A program made the translations under genes and the position numbers. Below, piece after piece: positions 12,170 through 30,425 of a stretch of DNA of 64,000 bases; the stretch's first letter is position 1, and each line of letters starts with the position of its first letter. The notes below the pieces were generated by a model that saw only the letters and a program-made list of their open reading frames with translations, ran no database searches and was not told where the DNA came from. Source of the DNA: an uncultured bacterium (GTDB lineage Bacteria > Bacillota_I > Bacilli_A > RFN20 > CAG-826); contig CASEVI010000001.1 in the NCBI GenBank assembly GCA_949291375.1, forward strand, positions 68,980 to 132,979. The letters are read 5' to 3'.

Positions 12170-12203
12170 AATTCAAATTATACCAAAGAATATATTTTTT
12201 TAC

Positions 12204-13145: not shown

Positions 13146-13156
13146 TTTTTACTTAT

Positions 13157-14903: not shown

Positions 14904-15854
14904 TTAATCCATTAATAATGAAGCAGCACCAATAATTCCAGCGTCATTTTTAAGTTTTGCAATTAAAACTTCGCTAGCTGGAGCTCCTTCATATCCATAA
15001 TTTTGTTTTACTAAATATGCTTTTAATTTATTAGTTAAATATTCTCCTTGATTAGAAATTCCTCCACCAATAACAAATGCTTCTGGACGGAATATATTAG
15101 CAAAATCTAGCATACCTTCACCTAAATACATAATATATTCATCTATTAATTTATTAGCGGCTTCATCACCTTTTTTAGCACATTCAAACGAAGTAAGACC
15201 ACTAACATTTTCAATATCATTATTACAATATTCCCGCATCATTGAGTCTTTATATTTTTGCATATATTCACGGGTCATTCTTAATAAAGCGCTAGCAGAA
15301 GCATAAGTTTCTAAACATCCTTTTCTTCCACATCCACAACTTCTTCCATTTAAAATTAAGCAAACATGTCCAAGTTCAGCACCCTTACCTTCGTTTCCTT
15401 CGTATAATTTTCCATTTAAAATAAGTCCGCCACCGATTCCTGTTCCTAAAGTAAGTAAAACAACATTTTGCATACCTTTAGCAACACCAAATCTTTGTTC
15501 ACCTAAAGCAGCAACATTAGCATCATTCGAAAGATATATTGGTAAATTTAGATCTTTTAAATAATCTTTTAATGGAACATCTCTTCCACCGATATTAGCC
15601 ATTTTATTAATTAATCCCTTTTTATTATCAACCATTCCAGGGACGCCAAAGCCAATTCCTTGAACATCCAGCTCTTTTTCCTTACACTCATTAATAATTT
15701 TAACTAATAATTCTTTAATATCTTTAAGAAAAACATCAACATGTTTTCCATCAGTAACAACTTTATCTTTGAGTAAAATCTTCCCATTTAAATCAACAGC
15801 ACCAGCTTTAATTGACATTCCGCCAACATCAACACCAATATAAACTTTTTTCAT
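14904..15854 (-). CDS. ROK family sugar kinase (glucokinase/GlcNAc kinase-like)
   Basis: IGVDVGG, NDANVAALGE, TLGTGIGGG, GAELGH, CGCGRKGCLE. Confidence 0.93.
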   Translation of the reverse strand: MKKVYIGVDVGGMSIKAGAVDLNGKILLKDKVVTDGKHVDVFLKDIKELLVKIINECKEKELDVQGIGFGVPGMVDNKKGLINKMANIGGRDVPLKDYLKDLNLPIYLSNDANVAALGEQRFGVAKGMQNVVLLTLGTGIGGGLILNGKLYEGNEGKGAELGHVCLILNGRSCGCGRKGCLETYASASALLRMTREYMQKYKDSMMREYCNNDIENVSGLTSFECAKKGDEAANKLIDEYIMYLGEGMLDFANIFRPEAFVIGGGISNQGEYLTNKLKAYLVKQNYGYEGAPASEVLIAKLKNDAGIIGAASLLMD

Positions 15855-15920
15855 GATAAATCCTCTAATTTTTCTTAATATATTGTATAAAAATAAAAAA
15901 ACTTCTTAAATAGAAAAATT

Positions 15921-16024
15921 ATAGTTTCGTTTATTTTTCAAATAAAAGATTTTTAACTTTTAAACGAAACACTTAAAGTAAAAATGCGATAAAATACGAA
16001 GTTTTTTCATAGTAAAAACGAAAC
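15921..16024. promoter_or_regulatory. Putative DeoR-family operator half-sites in the ROK/aldolase divergent promoter
   Basis: ATAGTTTCGTTT at 15921-15932 and AAACGAAAC at 15962-15970 and 16016-16024. Same half-site as the palindrome upstream of the deoR-type gene. Confidence 0.6.
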
Positions 16025-16060
16025 ATATATGAAAGAATTTATTCAAAGGAGTTATTAAAA

Positions 16061-17158
16061 ATGCCATATATATCATCAAAACAAATTTTAACTTATGCTA
16101 GAGATCATAAGATTGCTCATGGAGCTTTTAATGTCAATGCGTTATGCCAAGCAAAAGCTATAATTGAAGCTTGTGAAGAGTTACGCTGTGCTGCTATTAT
16201 TCAAGTTGCTGAACCAGGTTTAGCATATATTGGTGGAAGAGCAGATTTTTTAAATGGAACAATGGAAGAAAAGAAATTAGGTGCTAAAAGAATTGCTAAA
16301 TATGTTAAAGCTTTAGCAGAAAAATCACCTATTCCAATCTGTTTACACCTCGATCACGGTAGAAGTTTTGAATCCTGCAAAGCAGTTATTGATGCTGGAT
16401 TTAATAGTGTCATGATTGATGGAAGTGCCCTTCCTTATGAAGAAAACGTTAAATTAACTGCAAAAGTTGTTAAATATGCTCATAAAAGAGGCGTTCAAGT
16501 TGAAGGTGAATTAGGTGTTTTAGCAGGTGTTGAAGATCATGTCTTTGCTGCTTCTTCTACTTATACTAACCCAATGACAGCTATCGATTTCTTTAAAAGA
16601 ACAGGCGTTGATTCATTAGCCATCTCATATGGAACAAAACATGGTGCTGTTAAAGGTGATAACGTTAAATTAAGAAAAGAGATTGTTATTGCAACAATGG
16701 AAAATATGTTACATGAAAACATTGATGGAGCTATTGTTTCACATGGTTCAAGTTTAGTTCCTCAATATATCGTTAACGAAATTAATGCTTTAGGCGGACA
16801 AGTTAAAGGACACGGAATCCCACTTGAACAATTAAAAGAAGTTATCCCAGCAGGTGTTTCAAAAATTAATATGGATACTGATATTAGACTTGCTACTACA
16901 AGAAATTTACTTGAATATTATGAAGCTGATAAATCAAGACAAGAAGGTAGCAAAGTTTATAAATTATTAAAAGAAAAACCAGATTCATTCGAATATCGTT
17001 ATTATTTAAAAGAATATATTAATGAACTCGAAACAAATAAAGGTTTTAACGATGAACTTAAAGCAATTGTTCCATTAATGGAAAAAGCCGTCAAAGAAAT
17101 TGTTTTAACTGCTTCTGTTGAATTTGGAAGTGTTGGAGATGCTCCATACATTAAATAA
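16061..17158 (+). CDS. Class II fructose-bisphosphate aldolase family protein
   Basis: HLDH, SVMIDGS, VEGELG, Zn ligands in GTKHG and SHGSS, KINMDTDIR. Confidence 0.92.
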   Translation: MPYISSKQILTYARDHKIAHGAFNVNALCQAKAIIEACEELRCAAIIQVAEPGLAYIGGRADFLNGTMEEKKLGAKRIAKYVKALAEKSPIPICLHLDHGRSFESCKAVIDAGFNSVMIDGSALPYEENVKLTAKVVKYAHKRGVQVEGELGVLAGVEDHVFAASSTYTNPMTAIDFFKRTGVDSLAISYGTKHGAVKGDNVKLRKEIVIATMENMLHENIDGAIVSHGSSLVPQYIVNEINALGGQVKGHGIPLEQLKEVIPAGVSKINMDTDIRLATTRNLLEYYEADKSRQEGSKVYKLLKEKPDSFEYRYYLKEYINELETNKGFNDELKAIVPLMEKAVKEIVLTASVEFGSVGDAPYIK

Positions 17159-17204
17159 ATAAATTATTTTATTTATATTTTATATATTTAAAGTTTAGTT
17201 TATA

Positions 17205-17248
17205 AAAAATACTCTATAACATTCAGCCCTTAGTTATAGAGTATTTTT
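17205..17248 (+). terminator. Intrinsic terminator after aldolase
   Basis: AAAAATACTCTATAAC / GTTATAGAGTATTTTT 16-bp inverted repeat. Confidence 0.8.
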
Positions 17249-17459
17249 ATTTATTATAAGATAAAAGTTAATAAAATATTTTATTTAGATAAAATTTTTA
17301 GCGACAAATACTGGTACAATTAATTTTTTAATAATCTTTTTTTATAAAAAGTGAATAAAAATATTAAGTTGTAACCTTCTTGTAGGTACAAGGGGTTGGG
17401 AAGCCTTTTATAATCCCTTTATTTTATATATAGGTACTTTTATATAAAAAAAGAGGAGC

Positions 17460-18632
17460 CTAATCCTCTTTCTTATCTAAAAATGAAATTGTCGGTTTAA
17501 CCTCATCAACAAGTGGTCTACACCATTCAACAAATTCATCACTAACATCATGACCATCTTTGATGTATTCAACTGGGAAAACCCTTTCATCCAACATAAC
17601 CTTTTCAATCGGAATTAAAATTGGTTCGATTTTATATGGTTTTGTAGAAACTCTTTTAATTCCAGCCATTACACCATTAATATGTTTTAAAGCAGCATCA
17701 ATCGCAACTTCACCCATTAAAATCGCTTCCTCTTTATCGACTTTCGAAACTAAAGCTGAAGAACATCTACAAATTAATCCAGGTTTTTCACTTCTTGCTT
17801 TAATACCTAATTTTTCAATAACTAAAGTAGCTAAATGTGTTGAAACATCTCCAAAATATGTAGCTCTTTCTGTTTTAAAAATAGGTTTAACAATTGGATT
17901 ACCATTTTTATCTTTTAATCCTTCACTACAAACAACTACTACTCCATGATGTTTTTCCCATTCTTTTTTAACATCTTCGATAAATTGATCTTCATCAAAA
18001 GGAACTTCGGGGAAATAAATTAAATGAGGAGCATCACCTTTTTTCTTTCTAGCTAAAGCACTACTAGCAGCAAGCCAACCAGCATTTCTTCCCATGACTT
18101 CGATAATTGAAACATGAATTGGTAAACCCTTAACATCTTGAGCGCAGTCGCTGACCGTTTGAGCAATATAATTTGCACAAGAAGCAAATCCAGGAGCATG
18201 ATCAGTTACACCAATATCATTATCAATTGTTTTAGGAATACCAACGCAAGTTAATTCAACTCCTCTTTTTAAACCGTGTTTATAAATATTACCAATGGTA
18301 TCCATAGTTCCGTTTCCACCAGTAAACAAAACATAGCCAACGTTATATTTAATTAAAATATCAATTATTTTCTCATATTCTTTTTCATAAAGAGGAAAAC
18401 GAGAAGAACCGATTGCACTTCCAGGAGTATCCTTTAAAATCTCTAATTCTTCATTACTAAGGTCAGTTAAATCATTAAATTCTTCATTAAAAAGACCATC
18501 ACTTCCATATTTAGGAGCATAAATTCTTCCTTTAAAACCTTCTTTTCTTAATTTTTTTAATGCCCCATATAATGAAGCATTAATAACAGCGGTAGGTGCC
18601 CCACCATGAGCAATAATTAAATTTTTTTCCAT
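17460..18632 (-). CDS. PfkA-family phosphofructokinase-like kinase
   Basis: HGGAPTAVIN, GSSR, GGNGTMDT, PKTIDND, EVMGRNAGWLA. Confidence 0.9.
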   Translation of the reverse strand: MEKNLIIAHGGAPTAVINASLYGALKKLRKEGFKGRIYAPKYGSDGLFNEEFNDLTDLSNEELEILKDTPGSAIGSSRFPLYEKEYEKIIDILIKYNVGYVLFTGGNGTMDTIGNIYKHGLKRGVELTCVGIPKTIDNDIGVTDHAPGFASCANYIAQTVSDCAQDVKGLPIHVSIIEVMGRNAGWLAASSALARKKKGDAPHLIYFPEVPFDEDQFIEDVKKEWEKHHGVVVVCSEGLKDKNGNPIVKPIFKTERATYFGDVSTHLATLVIEKLGIKARSEKPGLICRCSSALVSKVDKEEAILMGEVAIDAALKHINGVMAGIKRVSTKPYKIEPILIPIEKVMLDERVFPVEYIKDGHDVSDEFVEWCRPLVDEVKPTISFLDKKED

Positions 18633-18634
18633 AA

Positions 18635-19756
18635 CTAATAAACCTTCTTTCCATTAATATAGACTTCTTCTACTTCATAATTAGAATTTAAAATAACAAA
18701 ATCGGCATTTTTTCCTTCTTTAATCGAACCAATCTTATCATCCATTCCCATAAGTTTAGCAGCATTTAAAGAGGTAATATGAGAAGCAATAACATCATCA
18801 AGATTCGAAAACTTTTTAATATTTCTAAACCCTCTATCCATAGTTAAACAACTTCCTGCTCTAACTCCACTATCTTTTAATTTAGCATCTTGATTTTTCA
18901 CAACAATTGGAGAATTCCCAATCATATAATCTCCATCAGGAAGACCAGCACACATTAAAGAATCAGTTATTCCAACAACTTTATTATTTCCTTTAATTTT
19001 TCTAATCCATTCGACCATTTCTGGGACGACATGGATTCCATCTAAAATTACTTCATTATATAAATCATCAAAATATAAAGCAGCAGTTGCAATTGAAGGA
19101 AAATGTTGATGAATTCCTTTCATTGCATTTAAACAATGAGTAATCGATCTAGCTCCAGCTTCATATCCTTTTTTAGTTTCATCAAAGGTTGCTGAAGAAT
19201 GTCCCATCGCAACTCTTATTCCTTTAGAAACTAAATATTTAATAACTTCTTCACTATTTTCTCTTTCAGGAGCAATCGTCATATATTTAAAAAGACCATG
19301 AGAATGAGAAATATATTCATCTACCTTAGAAATAGAAGGTTTTTGAATACATTCTTCAAGTTGAGCACCTTTAAATTCAAGTGATAAAAATGGTCCTTCG
19401 ATATGAACTCCTTTAATTATCGGATTATTTAATGAAACTTTATAAATTAATTCTAATTGTTTAAAAACAACCTCATCATGTTCAGTTAAAAGAGTTGGAA
19501 ATACACTAGTTACACCTTTAGAAATATAAAATTTTAATATTTCTTCAGCTTCTTTTTCATTTTTAACAGTTGAAAAATCATATCCATTCCCACCATGTGT
19601 ATGAACATCAAAAAAACCTGGTATCATTATTTTAGAAGAATAATCTTTACCTTCTAAATCGTTTTTAGATAATCCTAAAAAAGTAGAATCAAAAAGGACA
19701 TCACATATCTCCTCTTTATCTTCTTTAACTACTTTAATATTTTTAAAATTTTCCAT
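18635..19756 (-). CDS. nagA: N-acetylglucosamine-6-phosphate deacetylase
   Basis: PGFFDVHTHG, GVHIEGPF, MGHS, THCLNAM, GITDS. Start moved to ATG 19756. Confidence 0.92.
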   Translation of the reverse strand: MENFKNIKVVKEDKEEICDVLFDSTFLGLSKNDLEGKDYSSKIMIPGFFDVHTHGGNGYDFSTVKNEKEAEEILKFYISKGVTSVFPTLLTEHDEVVFKQLELIYKVSLNNPIIKGVHIEGPFLSLEFKGAQLEECIQKPSISKVDEYISHSHGLFKYMTIAPERENSEEVIKYLVSKGIRVAMGHSSATFDETKKGYEAGARSITHCLNAMKGIHQHFPSIATAALYFDDLYNEVILDGIHVVPEMVEWIRKIKGNNKVVGITDSLMCAGLPDGDYMIGNSPIVVKNQDAKLKDSGVRAGSCLTMDRGFRNIKKFSNLDDVIASHITSLNAAKLMGMDDKIGSIKEGKNADFVILNSNYEVEEVYINGKKVY

Positions 19757-19781
19757 TATAAAATCTCTACTTTCATTTTTC

Positions 19782-19840
19782 TTTATTAGTAAAATTATAC
19801 CATAATCTATGGTATAATTTTTATTAATATTACTAATAAA
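19782..19840. promoter_or_regulatory. Palindromic divergent promoter region (nagA / aldose epimerase)
   Basis: AAAATTATACCATA-ATC-TATGGTATAATTTT perfect inverted repeat giving TGGTATAAT on both strands, flanked by TTATTAGTAA / TTACTAATAA. Confidence 0.6.
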
Positions 19841-19866
19841 TTTTAAAAATATTAAAGGATAAATAT

Positions 19867-20715
19867 ATGATTGAAACAATAAAAAATAACTCTTTAGAAG
19901 TAAAAATATCAACTATTGGAGCATTATTAACATCAATTAAAGATTTAAATAATAATAACGAAGAGCTTTTATATCAAATAGAAGAAAATTCATGGCCTTT
20001 CCAAGATGTTCAAATATTTCCACTTATTGGAAAAGGAGAATATATTTATAAAAATAAAAAATATGAATTTCCTCTTCGTCATGGTTTTATAAGAAATTCT
20101 TATTTTGAAGTAGTTAAAAAAGATGAAGATGAAATAACATTATCTTTTACTTCTAATGAAGAAACTTATAAGATTTATCCTTTTTTATTTACATTTTTAA
20201 TTACTTTTTCATTAAATGAATATACTTTAAATGTTAAAACTAAAATAATAAATAATGATAAAAGTAAAGATTTATATTGTGCTTATGGTTCTCATACTGG
20301 TTTAAAAGCATCTTCAAAAAATGGAAAAATTAGTTTTGATAAAGATATAAAAATTAATCCATTAACTAAAAATGGATTAATCGATTTAAATATTGAAGAA
20401 AATTTGAGAATAAAAGAATTAAGTTTAACTAAAGATACATTTAAAAAATATGATACATTAGTTTTAAGAAATCGTTATTCTTCAATTACTTTAGATAATG
20501 GGTTTAATTATTTAGTTAAATATAATTTTTTAAATGCTCCATATTTAGCAGTTTGGTCAAATAGTAATAAGGGTGAATTTATTTGTGTTGAACCTTGGTG
20601 GGGTATTTCTAATTACACTAACGAATTAATAAATATTAAAGATATTAATGAGATAAATGTTATAAAAAATGAGAAAGAATTCTCTTATTCATTCTCATTT
20701 GTCTATAAAAATTAA
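19867..20715 (+). CDS. Aldose 1-epimerase family protein (LacX-like)
   Basis: FPLIG, RHGF, GSHTGL, FICVEPWWG. Confidence 0.88.
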   Translation: MIETIKNNSLEVKISTIGALLTSIKDLNNNNEELLYQIEENSWPFQDVQIFPLIGKGEYIYKNKKYEFPLRHGFIRNSYFEVVKKDEDEITLSFTSNEETYKIYPFLFTFLITFSLNEYTLNVKTKIINNDKSKDLYCAYGSHTGLKASSKNGKISFDKDIKINPLTKNGLIDLNIEENLRIKELSLTKDTFKKYDTLVLRNRYSSITLDNGFNYLVKYNFLNAPYLAVWSNSNKGEFICVEPWWGISNYTNELINIKDINEINVIKNEKEFSYSFSFVYKN

Positions 20716-20734
20716 TTAACTATTTAAATATTTA

Positions 20735-21508
20735 TTAAGATACATAATCTACTTTAATACCAATATTTTTAAAGAAATCTTTGTATTCAATAGCAAGTTC
20801 ATCATCAGTTACAATTCGACTTACTTGGGATTGAGTAAATTGAACTAATAAACCTCTTTTATTAAATTTAGATGAATCAGTGATAATAATAATGTTTTTA
20901 GCACTTTCAGCCATATTTTTTATTGCTTCACTTCTAGAAAAATCACTTCCCATAAAACCAATGTTTTTAACAAATCCATCAGTTCCTAAAAAGATTTTAT
21001 CAACAAAAAATTGACGAACACTACTTCTTACAAGTGGACCAACTAATACTTGAGCATCATTTTGATATTCTCCACCTAAAAGAATAATTTTATTATTACC
21101 TAATTTAGAAGCGTGTTCAGCAATATAAATTGAATGGGTAATAATTGTAACACCTGGTTTATTTTTAACAATTTCTTCAGCTAAAAGAGCACAGGTTGAA
21201 CCACTTCCAATTAAAATAGTTTCATTTACATCAATTAAAGAAGCTGCTTTTTTAGCAATCTTACATTTTTTATCATAATTAATTGATAAACGATTAGTAA
21301 TATCAGCAGTATTCTTTTTTAAAGCAAAACCATGTCTTCTAATTAAAATTCCATAATCACTTAAAAGATCTAAATCTTTACGAATAGTTACTTCACTAAC
21401 ATTTAATAATTTAGATAAATCTTTAACGGTTATACTTTTTTTTGCATCAACAAGTTCGACTATTTCACTTTGTCTTTTATTAATTTTCATTCTTCCTTGT
21501 CTCTTCAT
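20735..21508 (-). CDS. DeoR/GlpR family transcriptional regulator
   Basis: HTH VSEVTIRKDL, RRHGFA, KCKIAKKAA, GSGST, VDKIFLGTDG, DSSKF. Confidence 0.95.
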   Translation of the reverse strand: MKRQGRMKINKRQSEIVELVDAKKSITVKDLSKLLNVSEVTIRKDLDLLSDYGILIRRHGFALKKNTADITNRLSINYDKKCKIAKKAASLIDVNETILIGSGSTCALLAEEIVKNKPGVTIITHSIYIAEHASKLGNNKIILLGGEYQNDAQVLVGPLVRSSVRQFFVDKIFLGTDGFVKNIGFMGSDFSRSEAIKNMAESAKNIIIITDSSKFNKRGLLVQFTQSQVSRIVTDDELAIEYKDFFKNIGIKVDYVS

Positions 21509-21524
21509 ATATAAATGATAGATT

Positions 21525-21559
21525 AATAGTTTCGTTTTGTAAATATAAACGAAACTATT
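21525..21559. promoter_or_regulatory. Putative DeoR-family operator palindrome
   Basis: AATAGTTTCGTTT-N9-AAACGAAACTATT perfect 13-bp inverted repeat 17 bp upstream of the regulator start, between the divergent deoR-type and tauE-type genes. Confidence 0.7.
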
Positions 21560-21654
21560 TATATATTTATAAGTACAATTTTACTAGTTATTATTTATAC
21601 ATAAATAATAAAATAACTTTTATTTCATTATTATAAAGAGTATTATCTACTTAT

Positions 21655-22506
21655 ATGGTTTATTATTTTATTTTTCCTCTAGTTGTTATAATTGCTTCAA
21701 TTGTTGGAGCGATTGCGGGGATTGGTGGAGGAGTCATCATTCGTCCAGTACTAGATGCTTTTAATTATTTTTCTACTCCTGAAATAACTAATATGATTTC
21801 AACGATGTGTGTTGTTTTTGGAACTTCAACTTCGATAATTCGTCATATTGCATCTAAAAGTAAGATTGAAAATTGGAAAACTGCTGTATTTTTAGGAATT
21901 GGAGCGGTTGTAGGAGGAGTTATTGGTCAATATTTATTCCAATTTGTTAAAGATTCTTCAAATGGTGATGTTTTAATTATTATTCAATCAGCTATTTTAA
22001 TTGCTCTTTTAGTTTTTGTTCTTATTTATATGAAGCTTCTTCTTCCTAAAGGAAAACAAATGCATATTAAAAACTTTATAGTAACAAGTATTATTGGAAT
22101 ATTTTTAGGAATTTGTTCTACTTTCTTAGGAATTGGAGGAGGACCTATTAATGTTGCTGTTTTACTTCTTTTCTTTGGAATGGATATGAAACAAGCGGCA
22201 ATTAATTCACTTATTACAATTATTTTCTCTCAACTTTCTAAAATAGTAATGGCTGGAATTGATGGAACATTTATTACACTTTTTACAATTAATGAACTTC
22301 CTACTCAAGCAGATCAATCTTGGTGGATATTCCTTCTTATCTTAGTACCTATTTCAATTATTGGATCACTTTTAGGAACATTCTTTAATAAAAAAATGAA
22401 CAATAAAGGTGTTCAAATAGTTTATATGGCTACTACTGTTGCAATTATTATTATTAATATTTATTTAATTGTAATGTCTTCTCTTAGACTCGGTGAAATA
22501 ATTTAA
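21655..22506 (+). CDS. TauE/SafE (TSUP) family transporter
   Basis: Two repeats GAIAGIGGGVIIRP / STFLGIGGGPINVA. Hydrophobic multi-pass protein. Confidence 0.88.
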   Translation: MVYYFIFPLVVIIASIVGAIAGIGGGVIIRPVLDAFNYFSTPEITNMISTMCVVFGTSTSIIRHIASKSKIENWKTAVFLGIGAVVGGVIGQYLFQFVKDSSNGDVLIIIQSAILIALLVFVLIYMKLLLPKGKQMHIKNFIVTSIIGIFLGICSTFLGIGGGPINVAVLLLFFGMDMKQAAINSLITIIFSQLSKIVMAGIDGTFITLFTINELPTQADQSWWIFLLILVPISIIGSLLGTFFNKKMNNKGVQIVYMATTVAIIIINIYLIVMSSLRLGEII

Positions 22507-22535
22507 TATATATAAACTAAAAATAAATTATTATA

Positions 22536-22572
22536 GAAAAGAGAATATAAATTGACTTTATATTCTCTTTTC
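22536..22572. terminator. Bidirectional intrinsic terminator
   Basis: GAAAAGAGAATATA / TATATTCTCTTTTC inverted repeat between convergent genes. Confidence 0.75.
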
Positions 22573-22699
22573 ATTTTAAGTTTTAAAAGGGGTGTAAATA
22601 TTTAAAAATCATTTAAAACTTATTTATATTATTACACTTAAAATATAAAAATGTTGTGAATATATGTAAAGTTTTATTAGATACGACTTAAATAATAAA

Positions 22700-23236
22700 T
22701 TATTCAATATAAATATAATTTAATGACCCGTTTATTTCATAAACATAGTGTGAAGAATCACATTTTAAAACGAAATTAGAATCTACTTGAATATATTTTT
22801 CATTGAATAAGGAATCTATAACATCACTATTTGTTAAAAGTGAGATGTTATCTTCTCTACTTTTATTAAAAGTTTTTGTAGGCATATTTGTTTTAAAAAG
22901 TTCTAAACATTCATCATAACTTGATTTTAATGGCCACTTATAAATAAATGGTTCAAATAAAACCCCCCGTTCGGCAATGCCATAAATATATAAAGTATAT
23001 ACATTATTTATTTTTCCATATAAAGAATAAATTACGCCATAAGGATTTTCTTGTTCTTCTTTAGGAGCAAGTTCATTTTTATAAGCAGAAGCATAAGAAA
23101 AAATATAGGTTTCTTCATAATTTAATTTTTTTGTTAATTCTTCATATACTTCCTCGTGTGATGGAGCGGCATATAAACAAGAAGTACTTAATAAAGAAGT
23201 AAAAAATAAAGTTGTAATTAATAAAATCTTTTTCAT
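22700..23236 (-). CDS. Hypothetical lipoprotein
   Basis: MKK + hydrophobic stretch + LSTSC lipobox-like. No recognisable domain. Confidence 0.6.
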   Translation of the reverse strand: MKKILLITTLFFTSLLSTSCLYAAPSHEEVYEELTKKLNYEETYIFSYASAYKNELAPKEEQENPYGVIYSLYGKINNVYTLYIYGIAERGVLFEPFIYKWPLKSSYDECLELFKTNMPTKTFNKSREDNISLLTNSDVIDSLFNEKYIQVDSNFVLKCDSSHYVYEINGSLNYIYIE

Positions 23237-23470
23237 ATAAAAATATTTTACATTAAATTTATGTATATAACTATGTAGTAGAATGTGTTAAATGTTTTTT
23301 GTTAGTTAAAATTAATAATTTGCACACTATTTTATTCAAATTATCGATATTAAATAATAAGATAATAATCATATATTTTCTAGAATTCAAAAAAAGAAAT
23401 AACTTTTAAAGTAAATAAAAATAATATTTATATTATTGCATTAGCATAATTGATCGATTCATATTTAAAA

Positions 23471-23488
23471 GAGGAGTTTTCACTCCTC
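23471..23488 (-). terminator. Terminator of the tpi-like...ABC operon
   Basis: GAGGAGT-TTTC-ACTCCTC hairpin followed by a T tract on the minus strand. Confidence 0.65.
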
Positions 23489-23528
23489 TCAATAAGACAA
23501 ATAATTATTTAAATGTTTTTATAATAAA

Positions 23529-24692
23529 TTATTCACCTAAAACTGCTTTTGCTGCTTCATAAATGTAACTGAAATCAGCATTCTTCTCAACTGAAGCGTC
23601 TGCAGAAACTTTATCAGCATTTCCACCAACTCTATCAGCATCTAAGATATTTTGAGCATATTCAGCCATTTTGCCACTTTCATATAATTCGATTTGTTCT
23701 TTATCACCTAACCAAATAGCAATATCTGTAGCTAAATCTTCAGCCATAACTGAACCGGCTGTAATTTCTTCGATATCATTACATGTTTCTTCTGGATTAT
23801 CTCTACGGAAATTCATTCCTTTAACGAGACCTCTCATAACTTTCTTGAAAGTTTCTTCATTGTTTTCTAACCAATCAGCGTTAACTGCCCAAGTAGATGG
23901 TTTATATTGATCAGCAAAGTGTGTTGATGTTTTACAAACAACTTTCATTGTTCCTAAATCTTCAAGTAATGTTGCTGATGGAGCGAAAGCAATAACGAAG
24001 TCATAGTTTGTTGCTTGAATTGCTGTTGAAGCAGAATCAACTTGTGAAACTGTAATTTCATTGTCTGGATTATAAGTAGTTAAGTTATTTGGAACTTTAA
24101 CACCTGTTGAGTCTGTGTACCAAATATCATCGCCATCGTCCATAATTGCATTAACGCCATCAATAATTGTAGTTAAGAATTGAGCTGGTGTTTTTGTTAA
24201 ATCTAATCCAATAGAAGCGCCTTTTAAAGCATTTCCGATTTCTTCTAAAGATGATTCAAGAGTTAAATCTTTACCAGGACCTGCTGGATTTGCAAATAAT
24301 CTGTCATCATCTGTTAAATTGTCAAGAGCTACTAATTTAATTTGTGGATCTTCTGCCCAATAATTGTAAGCAACACCACCACCCATGAATGAAATTTGAA
24401 TATCGCCATTCATAACTTGAGTAGCTAATGCAGGTCCAGCACCAACGACTGCTTCTGCTTCGATACCTTCTTCTTTAAAGAATCCTTGGTTAATAGCACT
24501 ATAACCAGCGCCAGCACCTAAATTACTATGTAAACCGATTTTGATTTTTTCAACTGTAGGGGTTGGATCTGGATCTGGTGTTGGATCTGGATCTGGTGTT
24601 GGATCTGGATTTGGTGTTAGATTACAAGCAACTAATGCTCCTAAACCAAGAAAACCGATTGCTAATAATGATAAAAGCTTTGTTTTTTTCAT
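23529..24692 (-). CDS. NitT/TauT (SsuA-like) ABC transporter substrate-binding lipoprotein
   Basis: Lipobox LVAC, Pro-rich linker, GFFKEEGIEAE, GDIQISFMG. Last gene of an ABC operon. Confidence 0.82.
   Translation of the reverse strand: MKKTKLLSLLAIGFLGLGALVACNLTPNPDPTPDPDPTPDPDPTPTVEKIKIGLHSNLGAGAGYSAINQGFFKEEGIEAEAVVGAGPALATQVMNGDIQISFMGGGVAYNYWAEDPQIKLVALDNLTDDDRLFANPAGPGKDLTLESSLEEIGNALKGASIGLDLTKTPAQFLTTIIDGVNAIMDDGDDIWYTDSTGVKVPNNLTTYNPDNEITVSQVDSASTAIQATNYDFVIAFAPSATLLEDLGTMKVVCKTSTHFADQYKPSTWAVNADWLENNEETFKKVMRGLVKGMNFRRDNPEETCNDIEEITAGSVMAEDLATDIAIWLGDKEQIELYESGKMAEYAQNILDADRVGGNADKVSADASVEKNADFSYIYEAAKAVLGE
24562..24615. repeat. 3 x 18-bp tandem repeat encoding a (TP[D/N]PDP)3 linker
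   Basis: GTTGGATCTGGATCTGGT twice plus GTTGGATCTGGATTTGGT. Confidence 0.9.
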
Positions 24693-24749
24693 AAATTCTC
24701 CTCTAAATTTTAAATTATTTATTTCACAAATATTTTTGTGTAAACCTAA

Positions 24750-25649
24750 TTAATGTTTTGTACTGTCAACATACATCTTATAAACTACATCCCAAATATG
24801 ATTACGATATTCTTGGAATTTAGGATCAAGTTTTGTTGCTTGCGTACGTGGATAAGGTAAATCAATATCAATAATTTCTTTTACTTGTCCTGGTCTTGCA
24901 CTCATGATAATAACTCTAGAAGCAAGGAGGACACATTCATCAACATCATGAGTAATAAAGAAACATGTTTTTCTTTCCTTTTCCCATGTTCTTAATAAAT
25001 CTTCTTGAAGTTGAGATCTTGTTTGAGCATCTAAAGCTCCAAATGGTTCATCAAGTAGTAAGACTTCAGAATTCAATGCATATCCTCTAGCGATTGCAAC
25101 TCTTTGCTTCATGCCACCAGATAATTCTTTTGGATATTTATTTTCAAACCCATTTAATTGAACCATGTCAATATATTTTTGTGCAATAGCTTCTCTTTCT
25201 AATTTAGAATAATTAACTCTCTTCATTAATGGAACAGTATTTCCATTTTCATCGGTAGTATATACTTGTTCCATTTCTCCGGTTTTCTTATTCTTTTTCA
25301 TTACTGGTACTTCGTGTTTAATAAATTTAGTACCATACATAACATTCTTTTTAACAGTTGACCAAGGGAATAAGGCATATTGTTGGAAAATAATTCCTCT
25401 ATCTGGGCCAGGCCCAAGAATCGGCCTTCCATGAATTGTTGCTTCTCCACTTGTTGGTTGTTCAAGTCCCCCAATAATATTTAATAATGTAGTTTTACCA
25501 CAGCCAGACGGACCAACAACACAAATAAACTCATTTTCTCTAATTTCAAGATTAACACCATTTAAAGCGACAACATCTTCGCCGTTTTCAACAGGATAAA
25601 TCTTTTTAACGTTATCAATTTTTATAACAACTTTTCCTTCGTTACTCAT
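24750..25649 (-). CDS. NitT/TauT ABC transporter ATP-binding protein
   Basis: [46 protein letters not shown]. Confidence 0.95.
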
Positions 25650-25661
25650 AAATTTCTCCTA

Positions 25662-26591
25662 TTATTTCCATCTTGTTAATCTTTTTTCGATTATTAATAA
25701 AATTTTATCTAATAAAATTCCAAATAAACCAAGAACAATGATACCCATAATACAGTAATCAAGTCTTAAGTTATTACCTTGGTTATTAATAAAGAAACCT
25801 AAACCAAATTGGGTTCCACTCATTTCAGCAGCAACTAATGTTGTCATAGCAGCACCAACACCAAGTCTCATAGCGGTAAGAATGAATGGGAATGCGCTAG
25901 GAACAATAACACCTAAGAATAAGTTTCTATCTTTAGCACCAAATGTATATGCGGCTTTAACTAATGTTAAATCAACATTTCTAACACCTTGATAAATTGT
26001 AACGGTCATTGTTAAGAAAACTGCTAACCAAATGATGAAATATTTAGCGCCTTCGCCACCAGCAAATGCAGCAACAACGATAGGAACATAAGCTAATGGT
26101 GGAATGCATCTTAAGAATTGAACAAATGGATCTAAGAATGCTCTAACAGGTTTATACCAAGCCATCAAGAATGCAACTGGAATTGAAGTTACACATGCAA
26201 TTAAGAAACCGATAAGAACACGTTGAACGGAATACCATAAATGCTGCCACAATCTTCCGTTACTAGCCATTTCAATAAATTTTGAAACGACTTCTGGAGG
26301 TGATGATAGCCAGCTCTTTCCTCCCATTACATCAACCGCAATGTAAGAATAAAGCCACCAGATTGCAATAACGCAAATAACACCAACTAAACCAACAATC
26401 GCAGTTTTCCATCCTGGCCATAAAGAGAAATCTTTCATTTTTTTAGGACCAGAAGTGGCAACATCGTTAACAGGTTTTGATAATCTTGTTAAGTCAACGG
26501 CTGCAATTGCTGCTTCTCTTTCTTCTCTCTTTTTAATAATGAATGCAGGTGTTAATTTCTCTTTAAGAGATTTTTTCTTTTCTTCTGCCAT
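25662..26591 (-). CDS. NitT/TauT ABC transporter permease
   Basis: SVQRVLIGF, RCIPPLAYVP, EAA-like LVKAAYTFGA, LVAAEM..GLG. Confidence 0.93.
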   Translation of the reverse strand: MAEEKKKSLKEKLTPAFIIKKREEREAAIAAVDLTRLSKPVNDVATSGPKKMKDFSLWPGWKTAIVGLVGVICVIAIWWLYSYIAVDVMGGKSWLSSPPEVVSKFIEMASNGRLWQHLWYSVQRVLIGFLIACVTSIPVAFLMAWYKPVRAFLDPFVQFLRCIPPLAYVPIVVAAFAGGEGAKYFIIWLAVFLTMTVTIYQGVRNVDLTLVKAAYTFGAKDRNLFLGVIVPSAFPFILTAMRLGVGAAMTTLVAAEMSGTQFGLGFFINNQGNNLRLDYCIMGIIVLGLFGILLDKILLIIEKRLTRWK

Positions 26592-26604
26592 AAATAACTA
26601 CTCC

Positions 26605-27417
26605 TTAATCAGCTAATTCTTCGCTGATGCCAATACGAGTATCATCATGGTCTTGAAGCAATGTTACAGGATAAGCAACAGTTTTATCTAAGAAACTAGC
26701 TCTTCTTACGACTGATCTATGCCAATTTCTAAAGCAATACAATCTAATCTTTTTTGCAGATAATATTTCTTTAAAGCCAATAGTGATTGCATATTCTGGC
26801 ATAAGATAATATGCACCATCGAAATCATCCATTGAGTTAACAACTCTAGTTGCTTCAGTAATTTTAACTACTCTGGTTCCTAAGTTTTTATACTCTTCTT
26901 CGCTTTCACCATGTTCAGGTGGTTCATTGAAAGCGATGTGACCAGTAATTCCAATACCTCCGAAACAAATGTCAACTCCGCCATGATCTTGTATAACTTT
27001 ATCAATGTATTCGATATTTTCTAAACTAGGAAAGATTCTTTGCTTTTCATCCATAATTAAGTCTTTATCGATTAAGTTATAACAAATTTCATACATTATT
27101 TTTCTAAATGATAATGGATTTGTAACATCAACTAAGTGAGATTCGTCATCCATATATTCATCCATATTTATAAATGTTACTTCTTTAAGAGAAACTCTTT
27201 CTTCATTAACTCTTTTAGCAAAGTATTTATATTGACCTACAGGTCCTAAAGGTACAATAAATAATGTTTTTTTATTGTTAGCATTATTTTCTTTAATAGT
27301 ATCAACCATTAAATCGGCCATCGATTTAAAGGTTGATTCTTTATCTTTATAAATATCAATTGGTATTTTACCAGTTGTAATATCTTTACCTTTAATTTTT
27401 AAGAAATCTTTATTCAT
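26605..27417 (-). CDS. NagB-like glucosamine-6-phosphate isomerase/deaminase family protein
   Basis: PLGPVGQY, NMDEY (catalytic Asp), GGIGITGHIAFNEP, TIGFKEIL. Confidence 0.85.
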   Translation of the reverse strand: MNKDFLKIKGKDITTGKIPIDIYKDKESTFKSMADLMVDTIKENNANNKKTLFIVPLGPVGQYKYFAKRVNEERVSLKEVTFINMDEYMDDESHLVDVTNPLSFRKIMYEICYNLIDKDLIMDEKQRIFPSLENIEYIDKVIQDHGGVDICFGGIGITGHIAFNEPPEHGESEEEYKNLGTRVVKITEATRVVNSMDDFDGAYYLMPEYAITIGFKEILSAKKIRLYCFRNWHRSVVRRASFLDKTVAYPVTLLQDHDDTRIGISEELAD

Positions 27418-28843
27418 CTTTGTCTTCCTCCATACATAAGTGAACTGATGGACGTTTAAATGTCATTGGTAAGACTAAGACATTTGGATGATCGCCAACA
27501 AATTTTTTAGCATCATTATATGCTTCCATAACTGTATTTCTTGTCTTCATTCCCATTTCTCTAGCCCAGCCAGGTTTTTTAGCTCCAACAATATAAACAG
27601 CTTTACAATCTCTTTCTGCAATATGAGCACAAGAGATCATTGAGAATGCATGGAATGGATGGAATGCGTAATTGAAACGATATGCATCAATATATTTTTT
27701 TGTATCCATCTTATCATAATAATGTTCAATATCTGGTAATGTATTGCCATTATTAACATAATAATCAAAGACATCTTTCATTGCTGGGAATTCTTCATCC
27801 CCGAAATCATCGCATTGAGCTAAAGCAATAATAACTGGATTATCACTCATAACTCTTTTAAGTCTTATGATTTGAGCAGCAATTGCTTGTTCAATTAAGA
27901 TAGGGTTTCTTCCTTGTCTTGTACCATATTGGAAGTCATTTGGAAGACCCATAATAATTACGTCGTATTTTTTCTTTGCCCAATGGACATAAGTTCTTTT
28001 ATCCGCAACTTCCCAACTTGCTTTTTCTACAGCATGCGCTTCACCTGCAAATACAGCAATTTGATGAGAGAATGAATCTAACACAGCATCAACACAGAAG
28101 AAGCTTCTTCCCATTCCGTGTTCCATCCATTCACCTATAGCGTCAAATTTTTGTCTCATTAATGAATGCGAAGTAACTGGAACGAAATCATCTCTATGCA
28201 TGACAGCTGGGCAGTGATGAGATGAAATTGATTCCCAATTTGAGATACCAGTTGCACAGTGTTTATATCCACCGCTATATCCACCATAAGGATTACCTTG
28301 AGTATGACCAATTAAGAATGTTATATCGCTATCATAAACGTACTTATTGATAACAACTTTAGCATTGAATTTAGGTTCATAACCAAGATCAACTATATGT
28401 TCAGGATCTTCGCTATCATGGTTGATAATTTGTCCTTTTGGATAGAATCTATCAAAGATCTCATCTCCCAAAATTCTTTTAATTTCTTCAGGTTTATTTT
28501 TTCTATGTAAACCATTTGAACAGATAAGTAAGATATCTTTTTCTTCAACACCATATTTTTCACATTCACTAATAATTAATGGAATTGAAGTTTTACGGTG
28601 TGAATCATCTTGAAATCCACCTTTAACTTTGTCTGGGAAGACAATTGTTACCTTGCTTCCTTTATGAACCAATTCAGAAATTGGTTTCATATTGAGCGGA
28701 TGTAATAAAGCGTTCATCGTTGCTTCTTTAACATCCTTAATACCTTCTGGGTCTTTTACTGTAACACCTGTTTCAAAAATGTCACTACCTTCAGGTACTT
28801 CGACAGCAACTTGACCATCGCCATACTCTAAATTAACTTTCAT
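27410..28843 (-). CDS. LarA-family (DUF2088, nickel-pincer-dependent racemase/epimerase-like) protein, divergent
   Basis: N-terminal LEYG, CSNGLHR, NHD, GGYSGGYK (K184 equivalent), SHH (H200 equivalent). Confidence 0.85.
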   Translation of the reverse strand: MKVNLEYGDGQVAVEVPEGSDIFETGVTVKDPEGIKDVKEATMNALLHPLNMKPISELVHKGSKVTIVFPDKVKGGFQDDSHRKTSIPLIISECEKYGVEEKDILLICSNGLHRKNKPEEIKRILGDEIFDRFYPKGQIINHDSEDPEHIVDLGYEPKFNAKVVINKYVYDSDITFLIGHTQGNPYGGYSGGYKHCATGISNWESISSHHCPAVMHRDDFVPVTSHSLMRQKFDAIGEWMEHGMGRSFFCVDAVLDSFSHQIAVFAGEAHAVEKASWEVADKRTYVHWAKKKYDVIIMGLPNDFQYGTRQGRNPILIEQAIAAQIIRLKRVMSDNPVIIALAQCDDFGDEEFPAMKDVFDYYVNNGNTLPDIEHYYDKMDTKKYIDAYRFNYAFHPFHAFSMISCAHIAERDCKAVYIVGAKKPGWAREMGMKTRNTVMEAYNDAKKFVGDHPNVLVLPMTFKRPSVHLCMEEDKDE

Positions 28844-28844
28844 A

Positions 28845-29654
28845 CTACTTTAACCCTTCCTTATATGTTTTTACGATTTCTTCAAAATCACTTAAGTAGA
28901 AACCGAAATCTTTTCCAAATCTTGTTAATGCTATTAATCCACCATCAAGTTCATCAATTGAAGCAAGCATTTTAGCATTATCGATTTTTAATCCTCCACC
29001 GTAAACAACATTACAAGGAACTACGCTTTTAATATGTTTAACGATATCTTCAATATATTCTTTATCAGGTGGTGTTTTTCCAGGTCCAATTGCCCACACA
29101 GGTTCATAAGCAATTGTAACTTTTGAAAGATCAACATCTTTTAAACCAACTAATAATTGATTTTTCAATACTTCATATTTATGTACTTGTTCTTCCATTT
29201 TTTCGCCAATGCAATAAAGAACATTCATTCCTAAATCAGCAGCACATTTAACTTCTTTATTTAAAATAAGATTAATGTCATAACTTCCACCATTAAGTGA
29301 AGTTAAATAATTTAAATGATTTCTTTCTTCACAGTGCCCAATTAAGCAATCATTAACCCCAATTGCTTTCATTGATTTAGCGGTTCTAGAAGTTGTAAAT
29401 GCACCAAAATTGCCACCAACACTCACATCTTGATAGTGGACACTTTGACATCCAATATGAATCTTTTTTGCCTCACTTAATGCAGGAAAAAGATTAGATT
29501 CTTGAAAATAAATTGTAATTGGAATGTCTAAATTCATTTTTTCGATGCCTGAAACAATTGTTTTTGCATAACTTTCATTTAAGGCTGTGTCATTGATACC
29601 ACCTAACTCACGAGGAATATCGAATCTTTTTAAGTTTAAATATATATTTTTCAT
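28845..29654 (-). CDS. Triose-phosphate isomerase family protein, divergent
   Basis: NLK (catalytic Lys), IGHCEER, AYEPVWAIG, YGGG. Confidence 0.88.
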   Translation of the reverse strand: MKNIYLNLKRFDIPRELGGINDTALNESYAKTIVSGIEKMNLDIPITIYFQESNLFPALSEAKKIHIGCQSVHYQDVSVGGNFGAFTTSRTAKSMKAIGVNDCLIGHCEERNHLNYLTSLNGGSYDINLILNKEVKCAADLGMNVLYCIGEKMEEQVHKYEVLKNQLLVGLKDVDLSKVTIAYEPVWAIGPGKTPPDKEYIEDIVKHIKSVVPCNVVYGGGLKIDNAKMLASIDELDGGLIALTRFGKDFGFYLSDFEEIVKTYKEGLK

Positions 29655-29784: not shown

Positions 29785-30402
29785 TTATATATTATTTTCA
29801 CTTACATTTATTAAATAATCACATTTTTTCACAATATCATAATGTGATTGATAGTTTTTTTCTAAAATAATCCATTTAGAAAAAAACATTTCATAATTAG
29901 AAGGGTTCCTTTTCATTATTCTTTCTTTTTGTAATTTTTGATCTTTAAACTTTAAAAATATTGAATAATTAAAATATTTACCTAATAAATTAGTATTCAG
30001 AGAATAACTTCCTTCAACAATTATTATCTTCTTCTTTTTCTTATTTATTTTTTCTTTTTTTTCATTATATTGTTGAGTTTTACAATTAAAAATAGAATAA
30101 GAAAAAGAAGAAATGTCTTTATTAGTTAACTTATCAATTACTTCTTCTTTTAATCTTTTATAGTTTATATTTCCATTAACTAAAGAAGAGATATTATTCA
30201 TATCGATGTAACCTTTATTTTCTAAATAAAAATCATCGATATGAATAATAGCTAATTCATCTTTATATATAGTTTTTAAAGATAGTGCTAGTGTAGATTT
30301 TCCACTAGCACTATCTCCATCTATAGCAATTACTATATTTTCTTTATTTTTTTCTTTTAATAAATCATCTATTTTATTTTTAATTAATTCAATATAGTCC
30401 AT
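29785..30402 (-). CDS. Uridine kinase / nucleoside kinase family P-loop protein
   Basis: IAIDGDSASGKST, IHIDDFY, IIVEGSYS. Confidence 0.8.
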   Translation of the reverse strand: MDYIELIKNKIDDLLKEKNKENIVIAIDGDSASGKSTLALSLKTIYKDELAIIHIDDFYLENKGYIDMNNISSLVNGNINYKRLKEEVIDKLTNKDISSFSYSIFNCKTQQYNEKKEKINKKKKKIIIVEGSYSLNTNLLGKYFNYSIFLKFKDQKLQKERIMKRNPSNYEMFFSKWIILEKNYQSHYDIVKKCDYLINVSENNI

Positions 30403-30425
30403 TTTTTATTATTAAAAGATAGAAA

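Follow-up and report, generated by a model that had tools for sequence, protein, structure and literature searches.

A TIM-like/LarA-like gene pair at the core of a conserved, probably catabolic cluster of divergent sugar-phosphate enzymes in an uncultured bacterium of the RFN20 lineage

Among nickel-pincer nucleotide (NPN) enzymes, a LarA subfamily represented by LarA_Sp of Streptococcus plurextorum (PDB 9Q2U and 9Q3K) and LarA_Bw of Blautia wexlerae (9Q3J) is octameric and has an invariant asparagine in place of the second catalytic histidine (Gatreddi et al. 2025; PMC12611868). LarA_Sp holds the NPN covalently, was purified with its cofactor partly reduced and with a 316.5-Da ligand in place, and is devoid of lactate racemase activity; most of the substrate-site residues differ from those of canonical LarA (PMC12611868). 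The genes neighbouring this subfamily encode triosephosphate isomerase (TPI), fructose-bisphosphate aldolase (FBA), glucosamine-6-phosphate (GlcN6P) isomerase, aldose epimerase, pyrophosphate (PPi)-dependent phosphofructokinase (PFK), phosphoglucose isomerase (PGI) and fructose bisphosphatase (FBPase), and a role in carbohydrate metabolism has been suggested (PMC12611868). In the literature on LarA with sulfoquinovose, on DUF2088 and, for 2025–2026, on nickel-pincer enzymes, no function assigned to the single-histidine subfamily was found. Here, a further member is described from a 64-kb stretch of DNA of an uncultured bacterium of the RFN20 lineage (contig CASEVI010000001.1, positions 68,980 to 132,979), referred to below as the window, in which the LarA-like gene lies in a six-gene operon directly downstream of a gene for a triosephosphate isomerase (TIM)-like protein. 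An earlier note on this DNA had taken the cluster for an uncharacterised one, which does not hold, as structures of the LarA subfamily have been solved and its neighbours described (PMC12611868); the cluster is a further case of a published but biochemically unsolved enzyme subfamily and gene context. The new elements are the obligate partnership with the TIM-like protein, the linkage to an importer and an exporter, the altered phosphate sites of the accompanying enzymes and a candidate operator.

The LarA-like protein aligns over residues 1–474 with both 9Q2U (E = 1e-177) and 9Q3J (E = 3.5e-172) and is about 60 % identical, over its full length, to LarA_Sp and LarA_Bw, whereas its matches to ordinary LarA and malate racemase have E values of only 1e-9 to 1e-19. 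Residue roles were mapped via the 9Q2U alignment and the published residue list (PMC12611868): H113 is the first catalytic histidine, N184 is the asparagine that takes the place of L. plantarum LarA His174, and the NPN site is intact, with K194 for the thioamide link, H210 as the nickel ligand and D71 and K74 for the ribose and phosphate. All of these residues, together with H398, match catalytic, cofactor or ligand-proximal residues of LarA_Sp and are invariant in 84 of 84 homologues. By its sequence the protein can be firmly placed among nickel-pincer-type enzymes, as the earlier note had it, and within the single-histidine (His to Asn) subfamily. With LarA_Sp and LarA_Bw it shares the catalytic histidine, the asparagine, the NPN lysine, the nickel histidine and the nucleotide-binding aspartate and lysine, as well as the types of neighbouring gene (TPI, FBA, GlcN6P isomerase, aldose epimerase and PPi-PFK). 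It differs from them in having Gln305 at the position of His306 of LarA_Sp, one of four ligand-proximal residues, in the sequence GTRQG for GDGMG, and in its association with a DeoR rather than a LacI regulator. The Gln305 variant (DFQYG[TS][RK]Q) was found in 19 of 84 loci, exclusively in the Bacilli lineage with DeoR-type regulators, while the remaining 65 loci have xFHYGxG[MH] or a close variant at this site.

Compared with canonical LarA and LarAH enzymes (PMC7583248, PMC11770544), the Lar_N fold and the NPN residues are the same and hidden-redox hydride transfer would be expected, but the second catalytic histidine is absent and the scores fall far under all LarAH cut-offs. A canonical LarA/LarAH assignment, including the NCBIfam LarAH14, LarAH15 and LarAH16 'hydroxyacid isomerase' models, was rejected (best score 194.5 against a cut-off of 740; 121.9 against 460 on the LarA model itself), as was membership of the two-histidine racemases and epimerases (LarA, Mar, Hgr and GntE), since the second histidine is Asn184. 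The earlier proposal that this homologue epimerises an alpha-hydroxy acid is therefore not safe, given the missing histidine and the lack of lactate racemase activity in LarA_Sp. The 316.5-Da adduct of LarA_Sp was also considered by mass; several compounds fit, including nicotinamide mononucleotide minus water, and the value, being non-discriminating, was not used as evidence.

The gene context of the subfamily was followed in one genome per species, scanned with two peptide patterns of the LarA-like family. At least 600 pattern matches were obtained and at least 582 species-level genomes encode a relative, the closest among the matches listed (99 % identity) belonging to an uncultured Bacilli metagenome-assembled genome (MAG). 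For 84 genome loci, taken with 10 kb on either side, all open reading frames (ORFs) were clustered and the clusters labelled by Pfam; 80 loci from a metagenome scan seeded with the TIM-like protein brought the total to 164. The TIM-like gene lies directly upstream of the LarA-like gene, on the same strand, in 81 of the 84 genome loci (about 95 %). In the reverse direction, starting from the TIM-like side, a LarA-like gene was present in 70 of the 80 metagenome loci and lay directly downstream in 59 of the 74 that had room for it; a NitT/TauT ABC system sits between the two genes in one locus (L094), and in another (L099) such a system follows the TIM-like gene, with no LarA-like gene in the available stretch. 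This goes far beyond what chance would produce. It is the TIM-like protein, and not NagB or DeoR, that is the LarA-like enzyme's invariant partner, and the two proteins are best considered jointly.

The wider cluster is looser (Table 1 gives the number of genome loci for each family of the window). PFK is the most frequent companion, often in the order PFK, TIM-like, LarA-like. The NagB-like gene is replaced in most of the six loci that encode a SIS-type isomerase; LacI regulators occur in 34 of the 84 genome loci, and divergent PGI (12), phosphomannose isomerase (PMI; 9), ribulose-phosphate epimerase (RPE; 8), ChrA-type halves (6) and RpiB (5) recur at lower frequency. Among the 94 of the 164 loci that extend over at least 12 kb, PFK was found in 67, an aldolase in 56, an NMT1 binding protein in 42 and TauE or ChrA, in several phyla, in 38, while an ROK, FGGY or Khk kinase or a phosphotransferase system (PTS) was found in 12 (13 %). 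Gene order varies among the Bacilli, Lachnospiraceae, other Clostridia, Erysipelotrichaceae, Spirochaetales and Anaerolineae, and such differences between phyla and families point to functional linkage and not to inherited synteny. The view that the genes form one functionally linked cluster, to be checked by their co-occurrence in other genomes, was thus upheld, the genes recurring in rearranged form across phyla. An ROK homologue, on the other hand, lies near the LarA-like gene in only seven genome loci, and the ROK kinase of the window is weakly linked to the cluster and possibly a housekeeping enzyme. That the same might apply to its neighbours, with only the six-gene operon being special and the aldolase, PFK, NagA and ROK genes being housekeeping genes of a small genome that happen to lie nearby, is very improbable. 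This explanation would suit the facts that PFK and NagA pass NCBIfam cut-offs, that ROK passes the glucokinase model and is adjoined by pyrG, and that no second tpi, pfk or fba gene was found within the 64 kb; however, PFK, FBA and NagA homologues (38–82 % identical) adjoin the pair in distant phyla in differing orders, the cluster NagAs share a derived histidine in place of an arginine, and the aldolase gene carries the motif of the DeoR region.

The proteins encoded around the pair are divergent at characteristic sites. The TIM-like protein scores under the cut-off of every NCBIfam TIM equivalog (best 95.8 against 255), yet the catalytic asparagine and lysine (NLKRFD), histidine (GHCEER) and glutamate (YEPVWAIGPGK) are kept in 81 homologues. 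Its loop 7 is YGGG in place of the canonical YGGS, and loop 8, canonically VGGASL, is replaced by IALTRF with a Thr-Arg conserved in the 81 sequences. A two-residue shortening of the lid loop 6 hinges on gap placement and is not claimed. The NagB-like protein is equally remote from its named relatives (TIGR00502 nagB, 92.8 against 236.9; AgaI, 56.3 against 271). In 39 homologues the catalytic residues Asp72, His143 and Glu148 (E. coli numbering) are invariant, while the TGGT loop is shortened by two residues, Gly or Asp stands in place of Arg172, and Lys208 is replaced by an invariant His followed by Arg or Lys. The TGGT loop, Arg172 and Lys208 are, as we take it from the structural literature on E. 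coli NagB, phosphate-site residues. The NagA-like deacetylase passes the NagA equivalog TIGR00221 (260.8 against 225.65). In its motif NAMKGIHQHFPS, a histidine is found where five of five aligned solved NagAs have arginine, a change shared by 25 of the 25 cluster-linked NagA homologues that show the motif; this arginine binds the 6-phosphate and corresponds to R227 in E. coli and R220 in M. smegmatis (PMC6016474). NagA requires an anion at C6 and takes GlcNAc-6-sulfate with a sevenfold higher Km (PMC6016474).

For the other enzymes the picture is less uniform. The nearest structures to the PFK are the PPi-PFKs 3K2Q and 3HNO; its 6-phosphate residues were compared by eye with E. coli PfkA and 3K2Q (His for R162, with R243 and R252 kept), a comparison too uncertain to be weighed. 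The aldolase passes only the cbbA subfamily model and is under all FBA and tagatose equivalog cut-offs, and the nearest structures to the aldose-1-epimerase-family protein are 3DCD and 3Q1N ('galactose mutarotase related'). As had been assumed earlier, the TIM-, NagB- and LarA-like proteins, all under the NCBIfam equivalog cut-offs, are by their sequences not canonical housekeeping enzymes. The NagA-, NagB- and TIM-like copies have kept their catalytic residues, while their 6-phosphate-binding residues are altered, and the genes surrounding the pair are firmly identified as divergent paralogues of a whole set of hexose-6-phosphate enzymes.

Among the known pathways closest to this set are those of the Aga/Nag type, with NagA or AgaA, NagB, AgaI or AgaS, PfkA or tagatose-6-phosphate kinase, and KbaY or GatY. 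AgaR is a DeoR-family repressor, and AgaI and AgaS alternate in Aga pathways. The order of deacetylase, deaminase/isomerase, 1-kinase and class II aldolase is the same here, as is the family of the regulator, and NagB-like and SIS-type enzymes alternate like AgaI and AgaS. In contrast, a NitT/TauT ABC importer is found instead of a PTS, a 6-kinase is rare, the NagA- and NagB-like proteins have altered phosphate sites, TauE and an obligatory TIM-like/LarA-like pair come in addition, and the AgaR, GatY and KbaY models all remain under their cut-offs. The erythritol pathway provides examples of TIM paralogues with tetrulose phosphates as substrates (EryH). The cluster might be read as an ordinary phosphorylated route, in which an N-acetylhexosamine (HexNAc) would be phosphorylated by a kinase encoded elsewhere or by ROK, then deacetylated, deaminated to a ketose 6-phosphate, phosphorylated again and finally split. 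On this view the LarA-like enzyme would epimerise a sugar phosphate with a single base and a keto intermediate that rotates, in the manner of UDP-galactose 4-epimerase; the TIM-like protein would handle an unusual triose or tetrose phosphate, for instance L-glyceraldehyde 3-phosphate or a tetrulose 4-phosphate; and TauE would be incidental. In agreement with such a route, the aldolase keeps both 6-phosphate-binding arginines (the R of DIRLAT and the R of FEYRYYL), the PFK, as judged by eye, keeps R243 and R252, NagA passes the TIGR00221 cut-off, the ROK gene adjoins the cluster in the window, some relatives have a PTS, and AP_endonuc_2 and RpiB genes co-occur in two loci (L052 and L066). However, the route would not explain the systematic alteration of phosphate-binding residues in the NagA-, NagB- and TIM-like proteins, the rarity of a 6-kinase or PTS in the cluster (12 of the 94 long loci), or the NitT/TauT importer and the TauE/ChrA genes (about 40 % of loci), and we know of no Aga/Nag pathway that needs an extra epimerase or a second TIM. 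It is regarded as possible, and as only slightly less likely than the 6-anion route proposed below; in its favour, a linear phosphorylated aldose was fitted into the LarA_Sp density by the authors of that structure (PMC12611868).

The importer is confirmed as a member of the NitT/TauT family, with a binding protein predicted to have the NMT1/SsuA fold, a TauC-like permease and a TauB/NtrD-like ATPase. The best NCBIfam matches, TauC for the permease and ntrCD, SaoA and TauB for the ATPase, are all under their cut-offs, and the ligand was left unassigned because this applies to all specific equivalogs. The AlphaFold model of the binding protein (pLDDT 93.9) matched TauA, a thiamin-binding ABC substrate-binding protein (4NMY), SsuA, NrtA and CmpA as top Foldseek hits at 11–16 % identity, which gave no clue to the ligand, and a sequence search of the PDB returned one weak match only, again 4NMY. 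The binding protein and permease vary among close relatives: their identities to the window proteins are 50 % and 74 % in locus L001, where the flanking genes are 93–99 % identical, 99–100 % in L002, and 48 % and 72 % in L004. This suggests that the two genes are exchangeable alleles and that surface-exposed uptake parts are replaced in a cassette-like manner. As for TauE, the export of a released oxyanion would fit as well as the export of a C3 end product.

A TauE-type exporter also belongs to sulfo-EMP2, a sulfoquinovose pathway of Embden–Meyerhof–Parnas (EMP) type. Its enzymes are the isomerase SqvD (PF02952), the kinase SqiK (PF00365) and the aldolase SqiA (PF01116), and a PF01263 mutarotase is used in sulfo-EMP1 (PMC10665668). 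The locus resembles sulfo-EMP2 in its PFK-family (PF00365) kinase, class II (PF01116) aldolase and TauE-family transporter and in the lack of a hexokinase step, and its importer is of the sulfonate family; a Fucose_iso_C-like (PF02952-like) gene lies beside the aldolase gene in three relatives only (L022, L068 and L077). On this basis the cluster could be a sulfo-EMP2-type pathway in which the TIM-like/LarA-like pair replaces the sulfolactaldehyde (SLA) dehydrogenase or reductase. Nevertheless, no GH31 sulfoquinovosidase was found in the window or the scanned neighbours, and no PF02952 gene in the window, which agrees with the earlier note that neither GH31 nor a fucose isomerase is encoded there. 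No SLA dehydrogenase or reductase is present in the window, NagA- and NagB-like proteins are present although sulfoquinovose would not need a deacetylase, and the aldolase retains the arginine, contributed to the 6-pocket by the partner subunit, that SqiA has lost (PMC10665668). Sulfo-EMP2 is thus an improbable model for the whole cluster.

Further support for a linkage of these genes may come from a sequence motif. The intergenic region between the DeoR and TauE genes contains a perfect palindrome (Table 1), and its half-site, GTTTCGTTT or AAACGAAAC, has three further copies 5' of the aldolase gene. With one mismatch or fewer allowed, the pattern had 18 matches in the window against 9.5 ± 3.2 expected, and the five that match best (three exact, two with a single mismatch) are confined to the aldolase-upstream and DeoR/TauE regions. 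The half-site is kept 5' of the DeoR gene in L001, L006–L011 and L018, occurs between the divergently oriented neighbours DeoR and TIM-like in L015 and L016, and, in L004, precedes the TIM-like gene by 104 nt. The shared operator-like motif would thus tie together the aldolase, TauE and DeoR genes and, in relatives, the TIM-like operon. The DeoR protein itself scores under the cut-offs of all its NCBIfam matches (YciT, AgaR, SrlR and GlpR). The proposed link to DeoR control has some support in the motif at the DeoR/TauE and aldolase genes, but it does not extend to most relatives, which use LacI. Copies of GTTTCGTTT were also noted near the 5' end of the coding region for the TIM-like protein, within it, in L004 and L006–L009, with none there in the window.

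Taken together, the locus is very probably a dedicated catabolic cluster under DeoR or LacI control, composed of a TIM-like/LarA-like core, divergent hexose-6-phosphate enzymes, a NitT/TauT importer and TauE. A more specific reading is put forward tentatively, as a possibility suggested by the sequences: a shadow EMP route for an N-acetylhexosamine with an anion at C6, in which the TIM-like/LarA-like pair would act on the C3 fragment. The importer would take up an N-acetylhexosamine already bearing a non-phosphate anion on C6, for which a sulfate ester or sulfonate would be the leading candidate and a carboxylate a less likely one. The NagA- and NagB-like enzymes would convert it to the matching ketose, the PFK-like kinase would phosphorylate the latter at C1, and the aldolase would yield dihydroxyacetone phosphate (DHAP) and a 3-substituted glyceraldehyde. 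The TIM-like enzyme would then form the enediolate of the C3 fragment, leading to isomerisation or to beta-elimination of the anion, and the LarA-like enzyme would end the sequence with a redox-neutral NPN hydride transfer, either from a keto-aldehyde hydrate to a 2-hydroxy acid or as an aldehyde dismutation, TauE exporting the anion or the sulfonated C3 product. This 6-anion route is favoured because a 6-kinase is nearly absent, the importer belongs to a sulfonate/nitrate family, oxyanion-type exporters are frequent, and the NagA-, NagB- and TIM-like proteins have changed anion sites. Of the genes that recur in the cluster, none was identified as an SLA-type dehydrogenase or reductase, in keeping with a last step that is redox-neutral.

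The hydride chemistry has a precedent in NphT, an NPN-dependent hydride transferase that takes a hydride from sugars at C1 and dismutates them (PMC13524815), and pyruvate with reduced NPN is a normal intermediate of LarA (PMC12611868); both make such a transfer plausible for the LarA-like enzyme. NphT likewise has a sugar-gene context and oxidises sugar C1 and reduces a carbonyl without net redox change, but its fold is that of the aldo-keto reductases, unrelated to LarA. Of the suggestion in the earlier note of a parallel EMP-like pathway, a real, nickel-pincer-based route parallel to EMP can be retained, while the terms 'epimerase' and 'C3 export' are not established.

A role for the pair alone has also to be weighed. 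Methylglyoxal synthase eliminates the phosphate of a triose phosphate, and glyoxalase III makes lactate from methylglyoxal. The TIM-like protein might eliminate phosphate from DHAP or glyceraldehyde 3-phosphate and the LarA-like enzyme make lactate, so that the two would form a methylglyoxal bypass relieving sugar-phosphate stress. Several features would suit such a module: the tightness of the pair and the frequent PFK, TIM-like, LarA-like operons in many sugar contexts, including loci with LacI only; the LarA intermediate just mentioned; the sufficiency of one histidine for a one-way reaction; and the changes to loop 8 and to the hinge residues in the lid of the TIM-like protein, which could favour elimination. 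However, a ligand of about 316 Da occupies the pocket of LarA_Sp, the bypass would leave unexplained the changed NagA and NagB sites, the link to TauE and the NitT/TauT importer, and a costly nickel cofactor seems needless where glyoxalases already perform the reaction. There is little to recommend this bypass as the function of the cluster.

The 6-anion shadow EMP route faces objections of its own. Apart from the two arginines kept by the aldolase and the ROK gene that adjoins the cluster in the window, these concern the substrate, the cofactor and the generality of the context. The ligand density of LarA_Sp is long and extends up to the active-site entrance (PMC12611868); together with the mass of 316.5 Da, this suggests a substrate larger than C3. 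The rarity of a 6-kinase was established in a census that covered four families only (ROK, FGGY, Khk and PTS). The TIM-like/LarA-like pair occurs with nucleoside hydrolases, Bmp binding proteins and RPE in Bittarella and Acetanaerobacterium, with PTS, PMI and transketolase halves in Dielma, and alone with LacI in some loci, and none of these contexts suggests a 6-sulfo sugar. The window carries no larB, larC or larE, although, in favour of the proposal, homologues of these lie near the LarA-like gene in 11 of the 164 loci, three of which (L029, L034 and L040) have the LarA-like gene directly followed by genes of the LarE, LarB and LarC types and by one for a family-5 binding protein. In the window the TIM-like gene is preceded by no motif copy, and as the promoter scan also revealed no sigma-70-like site there, the operon may be read through from the P-loop kinase and ECF-transporter genes that precede it. 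Finally, neither the window nor the scanned neighbours yielded a sulfoquinovosidase, a sulfoglycosidase or a sulfatase; Pfam scans of the large unassigned neighbour ORFs likewise contained no GH31, GH20 or sulfatase, the matches obtained being to SLH proteins, an AraC regulator, weakly to GH32- and GH114-like families, and to one member of the alkaline-phosphatase superfamily. The locus of the latter (L025, a Bacillota MAG) is the only one where an ester hydrolase may be present: the protein, of 654 aa (phosphodiesterase, with a weak sulfatase match), is encoded after the LarA-like gene at 11712–13676 (+) and is followed by an NMT1-type ABC system, TauE and ChrA halves.

A bolder form of the 6-anion proposal, which is unlikely, would make the cluster a sulfatase-free and dehydrogenase-free 'shadow glycolysis' of 6-sulfated or 6-sulfonated (amino)sugars such as mucin GlcNAc-6-sulfate. 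The sulfo group would replace the 6-phosphate down to the C3 fragment, from which the TIM-like enzyme would expel sulfate or sulfite; the LarA-like enzyme would make a 2-hydroxy acid from the keto-aldehyde by an internal hydride shift, and TauE would export the oxyanion. If this were true, the LarA fold would gain a new class of reaction, and sulfidogenic gut bacteria would have a further, new source of sulfate or sulfite. More generally, the altered anion sites in three 'hexose-6-phosphate' enzymes turn the question of the substrate into a choice at C6 between phosphate and sulfate, sulfonate or carboxylate. A host- or diet-derived sulfated or sulfonated sugar would be relevant to mucin turnover and to the flow of sulfur to sulfide producers, while a plain sugar phosphate would imply the first non-racemase reaction of the LarA fold. 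The cluster brings its own importer, binding protein and regulator, which are usable for ligand fishing. Among the matching metagenome contigs, many carry the label human gut.

The ORF list, the translations and the Pfam and NCBIfam scans of the 64-kb window placed all 14 genes of the locus at the positions given in Table 1, with the families that had been proposed for them earlier, and the six-gene operon and its neighbours are real. From the first gene to the sixth, the operon genes are separated by 1 nt, an 8-nt overlap, 13, 12 and 57 nt. The G+C content is 0.30–0.36 over 23.5–29.5 kb, the region of the operon, and 0.20–0.27 on either side. Translation of the NagA-like ORF probably starts in truth at the ATG at 19756. 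The terminator scan called nothing downstream of the binding-protein gene; by eye, a GAGGAGT/ACTCCTC hairpin followed by TTT is visible there at about 23466–23490.

Table 1. Features of the locus, in window coordinates, and occurrence of each family among the 84 genome loci
Feature	Position	Strand	Family evidence	Genome loci (of 84)
TIM-like isomerase, 269 aa (operon gene 1)	28845-29654	-	Pfam TIM 110 bits	
LarA-like nickel-pincer-nucleotide enzyme, 477 aa (operon gene 2)	27410-28843	-	Lar_N domain, PF09861 127 bits	
NagB-like isomerase/deaminase, 270 aa (operon gene 3)	26605-27417	-	no Pfam match at E<0.001	39
ABC permease, NitT/TauT (TauC/SsuC-like) (operon gene 4)	25662-26591	-	BPD_transp_1	33-34
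ABC ATPase, NitT/TauT family (operon gene 5)	24750-25649	-	ABC_tran	35-38
Substrate-binding lipoprotein, NMT1/SsuA/TauA fold (operon gene 6)	23529-24692	-	NMT1 domain, lipobox LVAC, PDPTP linker	29 + 4 (two clusters)
Predicted lipoprotein, 178 aa	22700-23236	-	no Pfam or NCBIfam match	
TauE/SafE-family anion transporter	21655-22506	+	Pfam TauE 126 bits	19 + 12 (two clusters)
Palindromic operator candidate between DeoR and TauE genes	21525-21559	.	ATAGTTTCGTTT N8 AAACGAAACTAT	
DeoR-family regulator	20735-21508	-	HTH_DeoR + DeoRC domains	15-17 (Bacilli lineage only)
Aldose-1-epimerase-family protein	19867-20715	+	Pfam Aldose_epim 77 bits	25-27
NagA-like deacetylase	18635-19756 (ORF to 19912)	-	TIGR00221, above cut-off	34-35
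PFK-family kinase, PRK14072 (PPi-type) subfamily	17460-18632	-	PFK 184 bits; PRK14072 396 vs 273	46
Class II ketose-bisphosphate aldolase, divergent, long C-terminal insertion	16061-17158	+	F_bP_aldolase 260 bits	37
Three GTTTCGTTT / AAACGAAAC motif copies 5' of aldolase gene	15923-16025	.	pattern scan	
ROK-family glucokinase-like kinase	14904-15854	-	TIGR00744 266 vs cut-off 260	

The rest of the window contains housekeeping genes, one GH3 gene and one EamA transporter gene. Directly upstream of the operon, at 29785–31100 (-), lie genes for a P-loop kinase (uridine-kinase/PRK family, 205 aa) and the S component of an energy-coupling factor (ECF) transporter (224 aa), a pair that is kept at this place in 14 loci of the Bacilli lineage and for which a link to the supply of a vitamin or nicotinate-derived cofactor is possible. 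Four to five genes upstream of the operon, at 32343–35783 (-), there are genes for the EamA transporter and for an 801-aa GH3 glycosidase that includes an Fn3-like domain; a GH3 homologue (cluster c30) occurs near PFK, LacI, TIM-like and LarA-like genes in L059 and L062, and the glycosidase may release the pathway substrate from a glycoside. The 178-aa lipoprotein, whose gene sits between the operon and TauE, was found in the closest relatives only and varies strongly among them (identities of 98 %, 45 %, 40 % and 36 %). Further away, an aconitase-X family gene lies beside a gene for a fused Old-Yellow-Enzyme/pyridine-nucleotide-disulfide oxidoreductase (685 aa) at 37179–40536 (-), and the region 46746–55147 contains divergent genes for a KAP-family P-loop NTPase and a 1494-aa SNF2-type helicase, which could represent a defence-type island, followed by a TldD/PmbA pair.

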